Source of the DNA: Amphiscolops sp. MND2022
Taxonomy: Eukaryota
Length of the DNA stretch: 64,000 nucleotides
Assembly (NCBI GenBank): GCA_964187785.1
Contig: OZ076411.1
Coordinates: 46,438,001 to 46,502,000 of the forward strand
Reading direction: 5' to 3'
Below, piece after piece: positions 7,144-64,000 of this stretch. The notes below the pieces were generated by a model. The model saw only the letters and a list, made by a program, of their open reading frames with translations. It had not been told where the DNA came from and did not search any database. Every line of letters starts with the position of its first letter. The first letter of the stretch is position 1. The position numbers and the translations under genes are program-made.

Positions 7144-7340
7144 AAACAAGCCGGGAACGGCATAAGTGTGCGCCATATCAAAGGCTCTAAAAGAGCAAAA
7201 GTACTTCAAAAATCACAAAAAATGAAGCAAAGACCCTTTCCACACGTTCAAAAATTTCCAAAAAAGCTCACAGTTCCGAAAAAAAATCGAAAGGGGGACG
7301 TTTTAGTCTCGTTCGGTTTTGTTAGTTATATTAAACGTAT
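7144..7340 (+). mobile_element. Helentron-like repeat, 5' fragment
   Basis: Begins AAACAAGCCGGGAACGGC...GCGCCATATCAAAGGCTC, like the other family 5' ends. Confidence 0.65.
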
Positions 7341-7789
7341 GTTTTATATCTTTTCCCTAACTTGTTTCTCGCCATCTCGGGAACCTTAATTGGTTCGTAA
7401 GGGCAGAATCAGATCAGTCAAAGGAGCATCGCTCTCCAAAGAATCTCAGATTGACAAGGAGACTACATTTAGACGTTTTTCTTGAACTCCTCGGAAGGTG
7501 GTTGTTTTTCATCGGCTGCCCCTCCTCAAGATATTTTGGCAATTGAAACAGTCATTCCCTTCAAAACGGAAAAGGGTTCAATGCTGAAAATATTTCTTTT
7601 TTGTTTCGAGTTCATCCGATAGAGTTAAATGCAATTCCAGTGAGCATTGAATCAGAGCCGTTGAACAGTTTTTTTGTGCGATTTTTAAAATCCCAAATAA
7701 AGATAGGTGATTTTGAGCTTTGTATCTATTTTATTGCTTTATTTTCACGGCCATAGAAACTTCTCAATTTGCAGCAGAATTTTTTAGTG

Positions 7790-8080
7790 ATGTAAATCTT
7801 GCAAGAAATTTTCCTTGGTGATGCAAGTCTTTCAAGAATTTTACAAGATTCTTGTAAGATATGACTTTTCTGTCTGATTTCTGCAAGACTTACATTTTTC
7901 ATGATTGGTTTTTTCCTCCACCATGGTATGTATATTATGCATTTTGAAACATAAAGCTGGTCTGTTTCCGTTGATAGTTGCTGTTAGTTATGCATTGAAC
8001 GTCTTGCAAAAATCAATTGTGCATATTTTACTCAGATTACTTTGCAACCCTCTTGAAGAAAGTGACCTATCAAGAAAGTC
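7790..8080. repeat. Cluster of CTTGCAAG-type motifs (MITE/subterminal repeat family)
   Basis: Repeated tcttgcaaga/caagattcttg motifs, shared with 44273-44794 and 55614-55802. Confidence 0.45.
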
Positions 8081-55613: not shown

Positions 55614-55802
55614 CCCTTGTTGAGATAAAAAGTAGGGTCCTTGCAACGATCTTGAAAGAACATTGCAAGATACTTGCCTAAAATGCATTCTTTTCAAGAA
55701 GCTTGCAAGCAATACCTCCACTTGCGAGAATTTTCAAGAAATAGATTAAATGCAAGGATCTGGCAAAATCTTTACAAGGGTCACACGTTTTCTCAACCAG
55801 GG
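55614..55802. mobile_element. MITE with CCCT-starting TIRs and a 2-bp TSD (CACTA-like)
   Basis: CCCTTGTTGAGATAAA / TTTTCTCAACCAGGG flanked by CA...CA; internal CTTGCAAG motifs; 165 bp upstream of the GPCR ATG. Confidence 0.65.
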
Positions 55803-56522
55803 CACTCTAATGCTTTTCGATCGAGAATCTTTGTGTCAAATGTCGGTACCCTAGTTGAGACTGCTTGAACTTTTTACATGCTGCAGGCCTGCATGCAGGG
55901 TATTTTTTTTATAAAACCTAGAAAATTCAGTATGCATCCGTTGGTAAATCTTGTAGAATTACACTGCATTCTCCACTACTGCAATTAAATTTGAAAATAT
56001 TTTCCTCTTCTTTATGGACATGATCACGTTTTATTCACACATTAATTTCTCAACTACTCATCTGATTTAACCACCGCTTCTCAAATAGGACGCTGAAGAT
56101 GACGCTAGTTTGCTGTTTACATTGTGAATGAAATTAAATTGCATTGAAATGGCGGCAAAATTGTGAACGTCTCAGATGCATTTAAAATTAGAACTGATGC
56201 ATAATAAAACTCGCAGAACTTCACGGCTTGAAATTGCCGCCAAAACTTTGATGATTCTTTAAAGCAGCTTGATAAAAGTTGATGACAACAGGGAAATAAT
56301 AACGCATTGAAGTTTCCGTAAGAGATTTAGAAAATCATTGAAAAAGTTGCTGGCAACTTTAAAGAACATATAAAAAATCCAAGCAAGTTCAACAAGGGTA
56401 CTGAAACTCTCGCAGATGTCAGAAAAAATGTAACCTTATTATAATATTTTGATCAGCGCTAGCAAAAGCTTCTCCTTAAAAACTATTAGTAATTTTGGAT
56501 TTTAGTAATTAACAAGGATCAG

Positions 56523-57125
56523 CTATTGAAAATAATATCTGTCGTAAGCACGAGAGTTTGTGCTCGTGACCCCGTCTTTAGGACGGTCATTGGCCTGTTT
56601 GTTCTTAGAATTATTTCTAGGTTCTAAGTTTTGCAGTACTTCAGAATATCCTTCCGGTCTCTCGGCCGGAACGTTCCATCCCCCTTTGGTCAATTGTCCC
56701 GATCCGGCCATAACTACATTTTGGATTTGAGGCAAAATTTGGCTGCTAATTGCCTCATTTATGGCTCTTTGAATCTGAACACTGACACTATTCATCATTT
56801 CGTCCATCTCTCGAGATATACGTGAATTTAACTCACTCGACAATCTATTGATCTCAACGCTTGAACATTCTCTGATTGAATTATGGCCTAATTCGGTATT
56901 TGGACTTGGTCCATTATTTCTTGAGTTCGGGAACTCATTCTCATTTTCAAGTTCAACTCCAAATAGGCTTTCTGGTCTACCGGCTTGATTACTATTCACA
57001 CTTTCATTTCTCTCACTTCTATCAAAGTGGTTTTCACCTAACATAATATCCAGATTTTCAATATCTGATAACATCTCAAGTCCTCTAGACTTTCTAGCTT
57101 TCTTTTGTTTTCTAGTAGTTGGCAT
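56523..57125 (-). CDS. Gag-like N-terminal ORF, cut at the LTR-like boundary
   Basis: MPTTRKQKKARKSR...INRLSSELNSRISREMDEMMNSVSVQIQRAINEAI coiled coil. The reading frame leaves the element at ...AYD (56541) and stops 5 codons later in flanking DNA. Confidence 0.55.
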   Translation of the reverse strand: MPTTRKQKKARKSRGLEMLSDIENLDIMLGENHFDRSERNESVNSNQAGRPESLFGVELENENEFPNSRNNGPSPNTELGHNSIRECSSVEINRLSSELNSRISREMDEMMNSVSVQIQRAINEAISSQILPQIQNVVMAGSGQLTKGGWNVPAERPEGYSEVLQNLEPRNNSKNKQANDRPKDGVTSTNSRAYDRYYFQ

Positions 57126-58301
57126 TGAAACAGTTCCGAATCAATAATGAATTAATCAACACGGAAATAACAGCGGTGCCGTTTGTGGATTAAACTTAAC
57201 TAGAGTAAAATGGAAGGAATTAATAATTTCCCCAACGGGATGACAGTATTTATACCCTTCAGGGAATGACAGTCACATTCCTTACATAACTAGTTAGGTT
57301 GATAGCATCATATGACCATTGGTTCCATGATGAAAACCCTGATATTCACATACCTTCGGGGACATCTAAGGAATGGCATTTATGGGTCATATAGTCAAAA
57401 GGTAGCTTCAAACGAGCTGCCGATTAAGGCATGTACATCAAAGTGTCAACAAATATCTTTTGTTTACATAACTCACGCAAAGTGAATTGGAGGCACGTGC
57501 CGACACAAGATTTATCATATACTACACTGAGAATGGAATGTATAATCGCACATAAAGGCTATGGTATGAATCCCCATTCATAAAAATACATTTCATGCTG
57601 AAGCCGAAATGGGCTTAATTCCGTAAGTACATACAGCACAATAGGGAAGTGAAGGAAAATAGCCTTGTCCGTCTATTTTTACATATGCTAGGATCACACA
57701 GATAATATAGTATCATAAGCACCTTTATATGTTTCAGGGATGAATTAATGCTAGTTCTGGGTTAATGCTCGGTTAACTGAACAATAAAACACAAATATGC
57801 ATGAAGTGGCCATAATCGACCATTTGATCAGAGTACCAATTGAAACCATATATATTAGTTCAATGGGCCTTACTCGGCCAAATACTAAACAAAGCTTTAC
57901 ATTATCAACAATGAACATTTAAACTACATGAAAGAACAATTGTATTATTACTAATAAAGTAACGATGTACTAAGTTAGTCCCTTTTCATTATCGCTTCGT
58001 GGCCGGAACCGGCCGTTTGACCAAAGTAGTGAGCAGCGAGAGCGGAATTTCGTCAGACGGCCTTAACCGGCCAATTAACAAATACAATAATAGTACAGCA
58101 AGAATTACAGCACGTGATTGGCTAGCACAACTGTGGTGAGTTATATCGCCGAGAAGGGACGTTTTCGCACTCGAACACGTTTCCTTCTCGCGATTAACTT
58201 GCTCTCTTATTGTTTGCTACAGCATCAATACAACTTTGCAATTTAATTCAGCTACTACATCAACGAACCGATTTGGCTAATCCCAAATCGTAATATTAAC
58301 A
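56540..58301 (-). mobile_element. Putative long LTR of a Ty3/Gypsy-like element; right boundary uncertain
   Basis: Sharp composition change at TGTCGTAAGC (minus-strand end ...GCTTACGACA). Candidate other end TGTTAATATT at 58301. No PPT, PBS or TSD confirmed. Confidence 0.5.
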
Positions 58302-58397
58302 GACTAGTTTGAACATCCAATATAAATAACCAAATAAAATAAATACAAACAAAAATACATAATGTAAACAGTTTCCAAAGTTTTAGCAGTTTTATTC

Positions 58398-59180
58398 TTA
58401 AAAAGTTGGCAGCGTTCCGGGTATGACTTCTTGGTCATTGCTTGTTGTCGTAATCATAGTGCCGTCACAGGCGGCAGCCTGCGACACTGCGGGTGCAAGA
58501 AAAAGAAACGAACCTGCGTTCAATCCGTTTTCGTAGGCTTCTCTCCTCAGCTTTGTTATGAATTCTGGCTCATCTCTCGGTGTAGATCTGTTCATGTACC
58601 AGTCCACTCGCTGTTTCTTGATCGCATCTACTGAGCGGCCGCAGACCATACATCCGGTATAACGTGTTTCGCTCACGTTCTCGTACGGCCTCGTGTTTTG
58701 AATGTGGTATGAAGCCCTGAATCCTGAATCAGCCACTACTAGCGGGGTATCCACAGACGGTCCTCTCTCATGAGGAGGCGGTGACAGTGGTGATTCCATG
58801 ACAGGAAGTAGAGTTTTGCAAAGCTCTATCCGAGATTTCCCTATCTTCTTTGGGGGAGCATAACACATTTCGTTATCGAAGTATTTGTGGTCCAACTTCG
58901 GGGTCACGTCTGCCTGCATCTGCCTGGAGCTCGGACCAGCTTCTGTATCTTCTTCTTCTTCGGGCAAATCTACAGTCATAATGCGGCCCCCTATTAACAT
59001 GGGGCTGGAGACTACTTCTCTCTCGATCCTGGCTACTAGTTGTTCAGTATCAGTGGAACAGTCGGTTTCCCAGTCTGAGGCTTCACTCTCACTACTAGAT
59101 ATGTAGATGACAGATTCGTTAGATTCATCAGAATCATAGTCCAAGTCGAATAATTTTCTCGCCAGATTGTACTTGCTCAT
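58398..59180 (-). CDS. Orphan 260-aa ORF, acidic N-terminus plus CxxC (GCMVCG); probable element accessory gene
   Basis: Intact, intronless, ATG-initiated, GC-richer than host DNA. Confidence 0.65.
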   Translation of the reverse strand: MSKYNLARKLFDLDYDSDESNESVIYISSSESEASDWETDCSTDTEQLVARIEREVVSSPMLIGGRIMTVDLPEEEEDTEAGPSSRQMQADVTPKLDHKYFDNEMCYAPPKKIGKSRIELCKTLLPVMESPLSPPPHERGPSVDTPLVVADSGFRASYHIQNTRPYENVSETRYTGCMVCGRSVDAIKKQRVDWYMNRSTPRDEPEFITKLRREAYENGLNAGSFLFLAPAVSQAAACDGTMITTTSNDQEVIPGTLPTF

Positions 59181-59545
59181 TATGAGTTTTTTAGCTATCT
59201 TGAAGCTTGAGGAGGCAACTAGTCAGAGTCAAAGTTTGAGATAGAATGAATCCAACAAATTTGAGAATTTAGCCGACTCGGGCCTTTTCCCGGCAATTCG
59301 TTTTCGGCGGTTGAATCTTCGGTAAATTGTCCTGATTCGACATAAACATTCCTGAATGGAATTCCATAATTAGTTGGCCGCCTTTGATATACCGATGTTT
59401 ACCCGTCATCAACGCCATCACCTGAAGAGGTGTGAACGACGCTTGAGCTGTTAACGTCAATTCTCTCCATCTCAAGTGGGTAATTAACGGGTCGCTTGAA
59501 GGCTATTAACGGCACGCGCCGCTAAATTCTTTCAACATGGCTTCA

Positions 59546-59554
59546 GCCAATCAG
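59546..59554 (+). promoter_or_regulatory. CCAAT box (GCCAATCAG)
   Basis: Consensus NF-Y-like site upstream of the 58398-59180 ORF; a second site (tgattggct) lies near 58115. Function not shown. Confidence 0.3.
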
Positions 59555-59556
59555 AG

Positions 59557-60274
59557 TTAAGCTCCGATAAAATGAAAAATTAAGTAATAAAATGGCGAAA
59601 ATGATAAATTAAAATAATTCAAAATGGCGGAAATAACAATTTGAGTAACTAAAATAACGGAAGTCCCAATTAGGACAACAAACAAAATGGAACAAGATGG
59701 TAAACCGAAATAGGGTAAACGGCCGTAATCGGCCAATAATTCCATAAGTTGTAAATAATGAAGTAATCTTTGTACATTTCGCTGGCAGACTCCATGTACA
59801 GAATAAATATGTAAATCATCCCATAAAATTAGTCTGGTAATAATCTTCAGCCACGAACTCCAACTCTTCAATTCTTTATTTTGAATTCCAATTCAATTCC
59901 TTTTATTTTAATTGCATTTCCTCGTCCATATTCATCCAGTCAGTCTTCATCGTCAAACTATCCTTTCTGTCTTCAATCCCTCCAGCCAGTCTTCTCTTCA
60001 GAGTATCTCTGTTTCTCCCCTTCAAGCCAAGTCCGGCCAATTTCCTTCGTGGCAGCAATCCGATTGGAGCATTTCCCGTTTCGTCCCAGCTCAGAATGTC
60101 TTCAACTGAAGGTTGGTTTGTTTCTTTTTTGAACTCAAATTTAACTTGATCAGGGCTAAATTCGTTCACAAAATGCTTCCTGTTTCCATCAATAGATGCG
60201 TGATAACACATTTCATTCGAATTTTCATAGCACTTCCGGAAGTTTTCTAACGCGGTAAAATGGATTTTTTTCAA
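59557..60274 (-). other. Short or stop-interrupted orphan ORFs (123 aa and 104 aa)
   Basis: ORFs 59903-60274 and 59557-59871; protein-like text continues across stops (RIEELEFVAEDYY). Confidence 0.3.
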
Positions 60275-63200
60275 GGAAGCTCACCGCCAAATTTCATCTC
60301 ATTCTGTTTAGAAAACCAGAACATTGACGAATCACAGATTCGAAACACCTCCTCTTCAGACAATTTCACCGAGATCCCTCAACGTCCTATTCCAATAACT
60401 ATGCCAAGGTCTAGTCCCGATCCAATTGTTTCGTCTTCTCCAACTCCATCCACTACCATTGTCATGTCAACAGCGGCGGTAACAGAAGGAGTCCAGGACT
60501 CAGTCACTCCCTCTCCTTTCAGTGTTGATAGTGATTTTGATGTCACGGCATACGCTGATGAGAAAGTTCTGCTTCTCGCACGGGCCCAGGAACAGGGAGA
60601 GAGACAGATTGCTAAGAGTTCCGGAATTGGGGAACAGGAGGCTGAAGAGAGTGCCCCTGAAGACCCGCCCACTGTCGGGGGTAAACCCCAACCTTCTACG
60701 TCGCTCTTCCAAACCAGCACTCCAACCAAGGACTTGCACAGTGAGTCTGCTGGGTTGGATCTATCACAGCTAGTAGCCGGTCTCACCATTGCTCCTTCCA
60801 CTCAGACGGAATTGCCAGAATTGTTGACAACTTGCGGAACTTCTGCCAACATGTCAGCAGTATCATTCCTTCAGCATGAGACTGATGAGGGTTCATCTAT
60901 ATGTGATGCCCCTAAATTGCCGACTGGAGTCACAGACATAGTATATTTGGACGACGTGACTGGGACTGAGGAAACCGGTGACACTTCCAGCCAGGCAAGC
61001 GGACCAGCTCTATACAGTTTCCAGCCAGTAGGAAATGCGGCAGAAACTGCCGGGGAGTCGTCAGTTGACACTCCTATTCATCGTTCAGATGACATGCGTC
61101 CGTCAACATCAACATCTGTAGGGCGAGATTCTGGCGTCAGGGAGCTCTCCGGTCGCAGCCGGGCCATTTTGAAACAGTACTTCGATCAGGATGCTACCAC
61201 CATCAATTTCCCTCTCGGTCACAGAACAGTGGCTTTTACTGAGCCACAAGTGTATCATCTTTTGAGGGTTCTTACGGATGAAACCCTGAAGATGTCCTTC
61301 ACTGCCATGGAACAGATGGTGATTGGGGCGGTTCGCGGAGCGCCAGTCACTTCCAGTTCTCGAACTGACCATTTCCGAATCAGGCCAAGAGCCCAAACTC
61401 CCGGACCTGGATTTCATAGTGATACTGATGGCAGCCCAGGCTCTGAAGATTTTCCTGAGTCAGGAACTGATACGTCTGTCGGAACAAGTTCAGGACAAGA
61501 GGACAGAGGGTTAGACTGCTCCAATGACACAGACAGTTCCGGAGAAATGGCTCTCATCTCACAGGCCTTCAAGGAGCCTTTCAGACCTGTTTCAGCTTCT
61601 TGCGGGACTACTCAAAATGATCCTTCCCAAGCAGACTCCGAATCAGCAGAACAGTCAAGCCTTGATGCCACTCTTTCCGAGTTACGGACTCAAACTTCTC
61701 CTGCCCCGCCTTTAGTTTCGAGTTCGGGTAAAGCGCCAAAGCGGAAACAGCGAAAACAGACTCGAGGTGTCCCTATGAAAGAGGAGTTCTTCTCCAAAAT
61801 CGGATGGACGCGCTCGTTTATTTCCGGACCAGCAGATCCGCTTCACAATCCGTATATGGTATGGTGCCATATATGCAAAAAGAATATCTCTGTGAAGACG
61901 AAGGGCACTTTAGAGATCCTGCGACACCACAGGACGGAGAAGCACCTCCGACGAGATCAAAGATGGCGCTACGAGCACCTCAAGAGTGTCCACCCCGTGT
62001 CCGGAAAGGTGCAACATCGGGTGAGAGGCCGCAATGGGAAGATCCTCTCGGAGATCGAGTTGGCTAAGGAGATGCGCCACTTTATGCATGTTGAGCTGGT
62101 GGACATCGGAGAACGCTTCCCCTTCTATGATGATTTCATAAAAGGAACAACCACCACACTCGTCACCCCTGAAGCAAGGACTAAGACGCAGATTCAACTT
62201 ATTGGGAACTTCATACAGCAACTTGGAGATATTGGACTGCTCCGCAAATTGTGGTCCCAACTAGGCTCTTTGACCAATTACCAGACCAGTTACTGCGACT
62301 TCGATTGGGGCGAGGAAAGGATTTCGGTAAGTTCTCTATTGGGTACGCGCACTGCTCGTGGAAAATCAAAGTCCTCCACGCATTTCGTAACTCTTCTTTT
62401 CCTTTTCAGGCCATCTTCCAGCATATTTTCAATTGTGCAATGAACGATTTAGCAAATCAGATTGCTACCACACAGCACTTTGCCATCGAGTTTGAAGATC
62501 AGGGAGTGAACAGACTCATGTCCGTCAAATTCTGGAAGGGCAACACCCTCTGCCGAGTCTACGTGTGCCGGAGTGGGCTTCCTTCCTCTGATCTTACTGG
62601 AGAGTTGGGGTCTCTCTCTCGACTTCTCTCGGTAGTGTCTACCAAGGCCGATATAGTCGCTTGTTCCGGGTGTCCAGTGGAGCTGATCCGGACTATCGAC
62701 TACAGTGCTTTCTTCCCTCGGGCTGTCCAGAGTTGCTTTCGCTTCGAGCACCTGCAACTCCAGAAGATGATGCACAAACCCACTTTCAGTGTGTTTGGCA
62801 GAATAGACTTCTTCTCCGTTCTGAAGTGCCTCATAGTTTCTCTTGGAGCCGCTACCGACGAAGACTGGGTCCTGCAATCCCCCGAACTTGCACGAGTTAG
62901 TATATTAAGTTCACACATGAGGCGTGAAAGGTTAGGGGGGTAGGTTCGGACAAAAGACAATTCGGGTTCATTTAGGCCATCGATTCCTGCAAACTGGACT
63001 TACCGAGTCTACCCAACCTCTGCCGGGAGCTCGTGAAACATTGGAAGGCAGTCCGGCAGTACCTGACGTCGCATACTCCACACCAAGGAATGCAAGGGGT
63101 CCACAATCAAGTGCAGAGCTTCGAGTGGTCTCTTATCTGCGACTCTTTCTTCGTCGTCAAGTTGGAATTCTTCCAACGCATAATCAGTGATTGTGAGTAT

Positions 63201-64000
63201 ACAGCTACATGTCCATATCTGTACTTTAAGACATCATCAGAACGGTTCTTGATCCTTGATTCCTTGGGCTACTAGCACAATAAGCATATTGGTATGGGTT
63301 CATGTGAACGTTTTGTTCCATTCATGATCTTGTCCGTTGTATTTTCCAGATGTTTCCAGTTTCGTTGTCAATCTGCTAGGCCGACGAGATGCGTCATTTT
63401 TCCTCTGTGGAGAAGTCTGCCGTTTGATCTCCAAGCTATGTGCCAGATGCTACTTGCCGGAAACCATCCCCCTCGAGAATTCGTGGTTCCTTCTCCTCAA
63501 TTTCAACGTGAGCGAAGGGAAATTCATCAGCGAGGAAGAGTTCCTTGTCCGGCACCGATTGACAAATCGGATAGCTACAGCCAGCAAACAGTGTGCCGAT
63601 GTTGTTCATCTGAACAAGAAGTCTGAGAAGGCCGCCATTGACAAGACAGCTGCAGAGACAACCAGCAGTTTCGTCAAAGAGGGACTGCAGTTCATTCAGT
63701 ACCTGATCAAGCAGGTCCTCAATCAAGCCGGGCTGAGTTCCGAGGTGATCAAGGGGTTAGCCGCCTTTGACCCTTTTGTCCTCTTCAAGAGACCCAGTGA
63801 GGTCGGACTCCGTCACTTTGAGGTGTTGTACTCGACCTTCCAGCTTCGCTCTTGGGTTTCCAGTGAGAATGAGAATGTCTGTCGAGATGAGTATTTGGCT
63901 TTGTTAGATCACCTGCGAGTCAATTATCCTCCAGATTTCGATTTCAAGGAAAATTCCACCGACCTGATAGACTTCCTGATGCAGCTCGAGTTTTTCCAAA
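60260..64000 (+). CDS. Intron-containing hAT-transposase-derived (ZNF862-like) protein with a BED/U1-like zinc finger, 3'-partial, >1140 aa
   Basis: Exons 60260-62326, 62410-62895, 62976-63192, 63350->64000 (GT-AG, phases 0,0,1; open to the window end). Finger WCHICKK..KGTLEILRHHRTEKH; hAT-like HFAIEFED, CFRFEHLQL, VIKGLAAFDP. Confidence 0.75.

Follow-up and report, generated by a model that had tools for sequence, protein, structure and literature searches.

The DNA analysed here (hereafter the window) is a 64,000-nt stretch of Amphiscolops sp. MND2022, corresponding to G000:C3:46438001-46502000 in a 1.07-Gb genome. An ORF in flanking sequence resembles an ENaC/degenerin channel, in keeping with an animal genome. 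Its last 7.5 kb form the left end of a 16,471-bp Ty3/gypsy retrotransposon that lies on the minus strand and continues beyond position 64000. Between pol and the 3' long terminal repeat (LTR), this element carries two head-to-head cargo genes: a 260-aa open reading frame (ORF) in sense orientation, referred to as the orphan ORF, and an antisense gene with predicted introns, which is the main subject of this report. A first-pass annotation of the window had placed an LTR-like terminus at 56540 and had proposed that the unit extends past 64000, and both proposals were borne out. Self-comparison identified a 1,947-bp direct repeat with TGTCG...CGACA ends and 99.69% identity, one copy of which is the 3' LTR (56540..58486, minus strand) and the other the 5' LTR (G000:C3:46509064-46511010). 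The left copy of the target site duplication (TSD), ATATC, occupies 56535..56539, the right copy directly follows G000:C3:46511010, and both pol and gag are present in the unit.

To list further copies, 961 bases from 56540 were used as a query and 40 of 4,102 candidates were scored; many locus pairs were spaced at ~14.5 kb. All 10 copies drawn from this list have paired LTRs, and 5-bp TSDs, which share no common sequence, were found in 9 of them. A full-length copy at G000:C8:58134466-58150973 (L009/L010) has flanks without a TSD and is possibly a recombinant of two insertions. The window block is colinear with nine other copies at 97–99.7% identity, except for a 31-nt deletion after the stop codon of the antisense gene, which was rejected as a frameshift because of its position 3' of the stop. 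The window element is a young Ty3/gypsy retrotransposon. It had been described as possibly 'giant', and at 16.5 kb it is indeed large, yet it ranks below Ogre (16–25 kb) and Burro (>30 kb) (PMC6431247). The rise in GC content that had been noted from 56540 applies to the interior (49.4% in 60260-64000, where the plus-strand gene lies) but not to the LTR (38.4%, compared with 37.5% in 1-56539). No Rfam family was found in 56000-64000.

The minus-strand gag gene encodes 570 aa, starts within the LTR and contains a CCHC knuckle. The minus-strand pol gene, located beyond 64000 like gag, comprises 1,746 codons with protease, reverse transcriptase (RT), RNase H and integrase (IN) domains in the order PR-RT-RH-IN (Pfam). 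An A AAA AAC heptamer upstream of the gag stop would be compatible with -1 frameshifting. The primer-binding site matches tRNA-Leu(CAG) of the same genome over 12 nt, the added CCA counted (ARAGORN called a tRNA at one of four loci). The 3'-end pattern of tRNA-Leu, the tRNA type priming the element, occurs 964 times genome-wide, and most of the 100 matches listed fall in a dense tandem array (~235–700-bp spacing) at G000:C8:35587099-35636985. No polypurine tract was found before the 3' LTR in the window lineage (5–8 purines per 20 nt; 5 of 20 at the window junction, 58487..58506, minus strand); far relatives have a 7–8-nt G-rich tract at this position. The LTR ends of the window clade are exact despite the missing tract, and the junction consists of coding sequence of the orphan ORF. 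Gag-like and orphan ORFs had both been annotated on the minus strand, which is correct, but the gag-like ORF is an LTR-borne copy of the first 200 gag codons (56523..57125, minus strand) that runs past the LTR end into the flank; a 205-codon ORF was rejected as a separate gene.

The orphan ORF (58398..59180) lies on the minus strand, like gag and pol, and ends inside the 3' LTR. Its product has an acidic N-terminus and a conserved CxxCG...ACDG region at the C-terminus. It is intact in 9 of 10 close copies, and 320 relatives were found; no Pfam family was detected in it or in 16 aligned relatives. Assignment as an errantivirus-like env gene was rejected, as the product matches no Pfam family and has no transmembrane stretch (maximum 19-residue hydropathy, 1.31). 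In almost every family compared, the terminal bases of the LTR (58455-58486 in the window) also encode the conserved VSQAAACDG motif of the orphan protein. A non-coding stretch (59181..60259) separates the two head-to-head genes and is a putative internal divergent promoter.

The antisense gene occupies the plus strand. Exon 1 (60260..62326) encodes a long low-complexity N-terminus followed by a basic KRK stretch and a BED-like C2H2 finger (C-x2-C...H-x5-H; ~61865-61945), the Cys and His residues of which are at least 90% conserved in 43 aligned rows. Exon 2 (62410..62895; 486 nt) encodes a predicted RNase-H-like core, exon 3 (62976..63192) is 217 nt long, and exon 4 (63350..64506, up to the stop at the window-equivalent position) encodes an all-helical domain. 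The three introns claimed in the first-pass annotation were recovered as predicted introns with GT-AG boundaries at 62327..62409 (83 nt, GTAAGT...TTTCAG), 62896..62975 (80 nt, GTTAGT...ATTTAG) and 63193..63349 (157 nt, GTGAGT...TTCCAG), and in silico splicing of the four exons yielded an open frame of 1,308 aa. This spliced frame is open in 7 of 10 close copies; the pol frame is open in 6 of 10 and the gag frame in 8 of 10.

When 30 loci were searched by spliced alignment, 24 yielded open models. Exon 2 measures 486 nt at 22 of these 24, the other two being mis-called acceptors (one corrected by eye), and intron lengths range from 65 to 157 nt in clean models. Exon lengths are constant with variable GT-AG introns down to ~30% protein identity. 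In the four more distant of five pairs compared, divergence is faster in introns than in exons (61–72% versus 77–81% identity in the two most distant). Judged by these patterns, the predicted introns look real. In far relatives, a fourth intron splits exon 3 into 135 + 82 nt (at 63110/63111 in the window). This intron is missing at all 20 window-lineage loci (gap of 0 in 18; -1 and -8 in two damaged copies). At the other loci, a gap of 67–453 nt was found in 22 of 30, and the remaining eight gave no usable match, two of them showing the intron in spliced models. The simplest reading of this pattern is one precise loss in the window lineage. Because the template of plus-strand synthesis has the same polarity as the mRNA of the antisense gene, a single intron would be erased if synthesis briefly changed template to a spliced mRNA packaged in the same particle.

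Exon 4 and its relatives, used as queries, returned 7,300–7,800 first-look candidates each, figures that are not copy numbers. Forty loci with 28–96% identity were fetched by cargo similarity. In 38 of them, the gene or its remains has gypsy pol, gag or the orphan ORF as a neighbour, with the gene order unchanged, and most have paired LTRs, in line with the fixed-order co-occurrence that the first-pass annotation had put forward for checking. The gene at the remaining two loci is carried by an EnSpm-type element with 2-bp TSDs; no locus outside transposable elements was found among the 40. None of the loci represents an independent hAT element with its own terminal inverted repeats (TIRs) and 8-bp TSDs, and no convincing TIR pair surrounds the antisense gene in the window element, which has only short AT-rich inverted pairs there. 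A stand-alone hAT element was rejected as the present source of the gene. A library search returned 421 relatives of the cargo, two of which were tested and match this genome at best at 46% and 38–40%, indicating that the cargo family is also present in other genomes. Two word-index protein searches for longer relatives returned nothing.

The dN/dS ratios were 0.04–0.11 for the core of the antisense gene (in the 6 of 19 pairs with measurable dS), 0.08–0.20 for the orphan ORF and 0.02–0.14 for RT+IN. By these ratios, both cargo genes are under purifying selection. A neutral passenger or chance introns can be counted as refuted, being hardly conceivable with such ratios, constant exon lengths around variable introns and a precise intron loss. 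Trees were constructed with FastTree and, for 16 rows, IQ-TREE (8 near-identical copies and 3 incomplete loci were left out). In the FastTree analysis, the cargo falls into four deep clades that correspond to four deep clades of RT+IN, and the cargo branches are far longer; between families, identity is 30–45% for the cargo and 82–88% for RT. The antisense gene is an old inherited component of the lineage, not a recent capture. Within clades, RT is 96–99% identical whereas the cargo is only 54–83% identical with saturated dS, so that modules have been exchanged. In the gag core, the window copy and L019/L020 encode near-identical proteins with saturated silent sites, the copies being 97% identical overall, and short recombinant tracts occur in gag. 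Because the gag core has also been swapped between close copies, the exchange reflects general recombination, and cargo-specific cassette swapping was rejected. Among individual copies, G000:C3:60226501-60245500 (L105/L106) lacks exon 1 and has a right LTR with a seemingly inverted end, and several Z and W copies contain internal tandem duplications of 2–3 kb.

The first-pass annotation had regarded the element as a retroelement with an accessory gene derived from a transposase, specifically of the hAT type. This view is supported, the evidence for the hAT origin coming from predicted structure. A model of the N-terminal half (the finger plus exon 2 of a relative) shows the strand-strand-strand-helix-strand-helix-strand core of RNase H. 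With this model, the first six Foldseek rows are all Hermes (best E 6.2e-4), and VIA aligned it with Hermes 141-269 (Z 6.1, rmsd 5.9, 113 residues). For a model of exon 4 (pLDDT 79.6), Foldseek gave no match at E 0.001, and the sole long VIA alignment was with Hermes 367-593 (Z 5.3, rmsd 6.5, 160 residues), other rows covering 38–69 residues. Each match is weak, but two separate models match colinear parts of Hermes, which argues for a hAT-type origin.

Several results weigh against this assignment. The N-half model has a mean pLDDT of only 49.8 and includes a read-through intron, generic RNase-H-like folds rank above Hermes in its VIA list, and the Z score of 5.3 obtained with exon 4 falls within the range of chance matches. 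Pfam searches with the exons and with 68 + 32 aligned relatives yielded no family at the cut-off, the only hit being zf-BED at E 0.57 in 3 of 32 rows, with no PF05699. The hmmsearch and hhalign comparisons with 27 ORFs from 20 hAT loci of the same genome were negative, as was a PDB profile search with the antisense protein. PF04195, the family of plant antisense ORFs and Retand TRP28, had no match in the Pfam scans, and PF14291 matched nothing, controls included. That every hAT sequence test was negative, and that kinases and actin-like folds are the best VIA rows, would suit a different origin, namely capture of a host gene encoding a zinc finger and an RNase-H-like fold of generic type. We consider this improbable, because the two models match Hermes colinearly, hAT transposases have the same succession of finger, RNase-H core, helical insertion and C-terminal helices, and the sampled loci include none outside transposable elements. 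As few eukaryotic transposases have been solved, a related DDE superfamily may also fit. On the structural models, descent of the antisense protein from a hAT-type transposase is probable.

The DDE triad and CxxH of active hAT transposases are not conserved in the equivalent columns of the antisense protein. The DDE-equivalent columns, which were assigned by eye from the strand pattern and the motifs of the hAT ORFs in this genome, vary (E/A/K at the first and S/T at the second, with no E at the third): the two Asp positions in exon 2 are not conserved, and exon 4 lacks the catalytic Glu. DNA cleavage by this protein is very unlikely.

The two sampled loci without gag, pol or LTR are part of a repeated unit of 35.3–38.1 kb with 37-bp perfect TIRs and subterminal repeats. 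All five copies fetched with both ends have 2-bp TSDs, in one copy only if an extra terminal C is allowed. The genome contains the TIR 151 times, and the unit encodes a 654-aa transposase that matches DUF1258 (E 4e-9), with Transposase_21 and DUF4218 below the cut-off. This giant unit is an EnSpm/CACTA-type DNA transposon. It also contains two weak SET-like ORFs (E 0.015 and 0.075). The 35-kb copy at G000:C2:29298732-29334034 carries the SET-like ORFs, 88-bp and 185-bp tandem arrays and a gypsy-derived cassette; another of its ORFs, which has no Pfam match, presumably resembles BEN. Short non-autonomous relatives of ~1–1.5 kb share the TIR of the giant element. In the window itself, a ~190-bp element at 55615-55803 has CCC...GGG ends and repeated CTTGCAA-type motifs; by eye it is an EnSpm-type miniature inverted-repeat transposable element with a 2-bp CA duplication, and an inverted-repeat search gave no pair there.

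In the EnSpm-borne gene, splice sites are present at each of the four intron positions, and 8 of 9 copies contain no stop codon within the three tested core segments. In the 16-row IQ-TREE analysis, the gene groups with one gypsy family with a support of 100/100. It is directly followed by a frameshifted copy of the C-terminus of gypsy pol and preceded by DNA matching the intergenic region of the donor gypsy family, which indicates that the transfer proceeded from gypsy to EnSpm. The 88-bp tandem arrays of the giant element match the pol tail of the same donor family (score 87, compared with a shuffled maximum of 40 and 25–40 for other gypsy families). The nearest gypsy relative shares 75% identity in exon 4 with saturated dS, and one broken locus shares 82%. 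The tree suggests two separate captures by the giant element, but a single origin is not rejected (p-AU 0.10). Two parts of the window intergenic region (59320-59387 and 59471-59542) match, at 79–84%, sequence close to the right end of the giant element and far from its cassette; this sequence may be another fragment of gypsy origin or a promoter common to both. The gene is intact while the adjoining pol end has decayed, which suggests selection in the new carrier, although pN/pS among its young copies does not show it. On the sequence evidence, the gene has moved from a retrotransposon to a DNA transposon and stayed intact.

The EnSpm carrier has no integrase, RT or particle to be served, so that a general regulatory (anti-silencing) function is more plausible than one confined to retrotransposons. 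A cofactor of the retrotransposon that tethers the integration complex to chosen chromatin or aids nuclear import would account for the DNA-binding-type finger, the basic KRK stretch and the tight linkage to pol, and plant antisense ORFs have been suggested to act in this way (PMC7264820), but with the gene intact in a DNA transposon lacking integrase and gag, and with no common sequence among the TSDs of the nine gypsy copies, we consider it unlikely. Retention in a DNA transposon fits instead with known regulators, as dead transposases and TnpA act in this way (bioRxiv 10.64898/2026.08.24.746577). Our tentative proposal, to which we give a little less than an even chance, is that the antisense gene is transcribed from an internal divergent promoter and spliced, and that its catalytically dead product acts in the nucleus, binds DNA sequence-specifically and maintains expression of the carrier.

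Under this proposal, an ancestral hAT-like gene would have landed in antisense orientation in the 3' internal region. Because of this placement, its introns would be invisible to splicing of the genomic RNA and would pass through reverse transcription, being copied with the element. Transcription of the gene would start at the internal promoter and run away from the orphan ORF, its back-to-back neighbour; the finger may bind short motifs in the carrier, and anti-silencing or trans-activation by the protein would keep its own element transcribed. Template switching may have reshuffled the cassette, and one gypsy family would then have handed it to the giant EnSpm element, where the gene was kept and the adjoining pol end decayed. 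Further observations tell against this scheme: no tandem motif array resembling VANC targets was found in 58487-65000 of the window element; pN/pS among young giant-EnSpm copies is 0.5–1.0 with few changes, selection there being deduced from intactness; and mosaicism is not peculiar to the cargo, the gag core being likewise exchanged.

The lack of a motif array in the window element would be expected if the protein were a decoy or inhibitor of a host silencing protein and did not act on carrier DNA, and the large helical body conserved throughout, together with presumed function in two unrelated transposon classes, is consistent with a host target. This reading is also unlikely, since the best-conserved part of the protein is the finger and a host-wide inhibitor, as a public good, would be harder to keep in thousands of copies. 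The divergence of the cargo between families (30–45%, against 82–88% for RT) is what would be expected from family-specific recognition, and antisense transcription is able to regulate elements of this kind (PMC7264820); both would suit a factor of self-restraint or competition, repressing its own or rival elements, or a regulatory antisense RNA. However, the carriers are very numerous and young, and strong protein-level constraint speaks against a role of the RNA only, so that restraint has a small probability, though not a negligible one. More ambitious than the proposed expression-keeping role, and doubtful at present, is a scheme in which the disarmed hAT transposase is a portable spliced anti-silencing module of animal transposons that was inherited and reshuffled throughout the gypsy radiation, was passed to the giant EnSpm element, where an 88-bp segment of the donor pol tail would have been amplified into a binding array, and was occasionally re-copied from its spliced mRNA by the RT of the element.

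Antisense ORFs between pol and the 3' LTR (aORF-3R) have been described in maize Grande (gene23), rice RIRE2, Retand (TRP28/PF04195) and fungal Boty (PMC7264820; PMC11963269), and their origin and function in plants and fungi have not been established according to PMC7264820. The gene described here resembles them in position, orientation, presence in most copies, conservation and a proposed nuclear/DNA-binding role (PMC7264820). For Grande, a dedicated internal promoter has been shown (PMC7264820), whereas that of the present gene is putative. In contrast to the plant and fungal ORFs as described in these sources, the present gene has three or four predicted spliceosomal introns, encodes 1,308 aa without PF04195 and with a Hermes-like fold, is paired head-to-head with another ORF and has a homologue in a DNA transposon; the word 'intron' is absent from the Retand paper (PMC11963269). 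Spm TnpA and Arabidopsis VANC are likewise accessory genes owned by an element and showing family-specific divergence (bioRxiv 10.64898/2026.08.24.746577; PMC5735166), and TnpA is derived from a transposase, as is likely here (bioRxiv 10.64898/2026.08.24.746577). VANC targets amplify as tandem repeats (PMC5735166); tandem 88-bp arrays occur in the giant EnSpm carrier, and none was found in the internal region of the window element. However, as reported in these sources, TnpA and VANC derive from or serve one superfamily of plant DNA transposons, whereas here a protein likely of hAT type is found in a retrotransposon and an EnSpm element; the term 'LTR' is absent from the main text of bioRxiv 10.64898/2026.08.24.746577.

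By predicted structure, the protein shares with hAT transposases (Hermes; PDB 8EDG, 4D1Q and 8SJD) a BED-like finger, an RNase-H-like core, a helical insertion and a C-terminal region. It differs from them in having no DDE, TIRs, 8-bp TSD or detectable sequence similarity. Catalytically dead host derivatives of hAT transposases include the ZBED family; unlike these, the present protein would have been domesticated by another transposon and not by the host. Planarian Burro, plant Ogre and the ORF3 of rotifer Vesta/Juno provide parallels of a Ty3/gypsy-like backbone with added coding capacity, but the available descriptions report polyprotein domains or extra ORFs and no antisense spliced gene (PMC6431247; PMC5408684). 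Enlarged En/Spm elements of 16–20 kb with four or five ORFs are known in Chondrus crispus (PMC6431247); the giant second carrier shares with them an EnSpm backbone and extra ORFs, but is 35–38 kb long and contains a gypsy-derived cassette. In the literature covered, which excludes subscription journals and Repbase, no LTR element of an animal was found to carry a dead transposase as a spliced antisense gene, nor was any such gene found to be shared with EnSpm.

The antisense gene is a variant of a known antisense-ORF theme with an unusual cross-class transfer. Sequence-specific anti-silencing by element-encoded proteins has been established in plant DNA transposons (PMC5735166; bioRxiv 10.64898/2026.08.24.746577), and the portable-module scheme, if true, would yield an animal equivalent of VANC/TnpA bridging the class I/class II divide. 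One transposon class would have domesticated the enzyme of another and then passed it to a third, and the missing fourth intron would be a naturally occurring example of an intron removed precisely from within a retroelement. With many diverged alleles, each accompanied by its own cis DNA, and two unrelated carriers, co-evolution between protein and motif would become testable in an animal.

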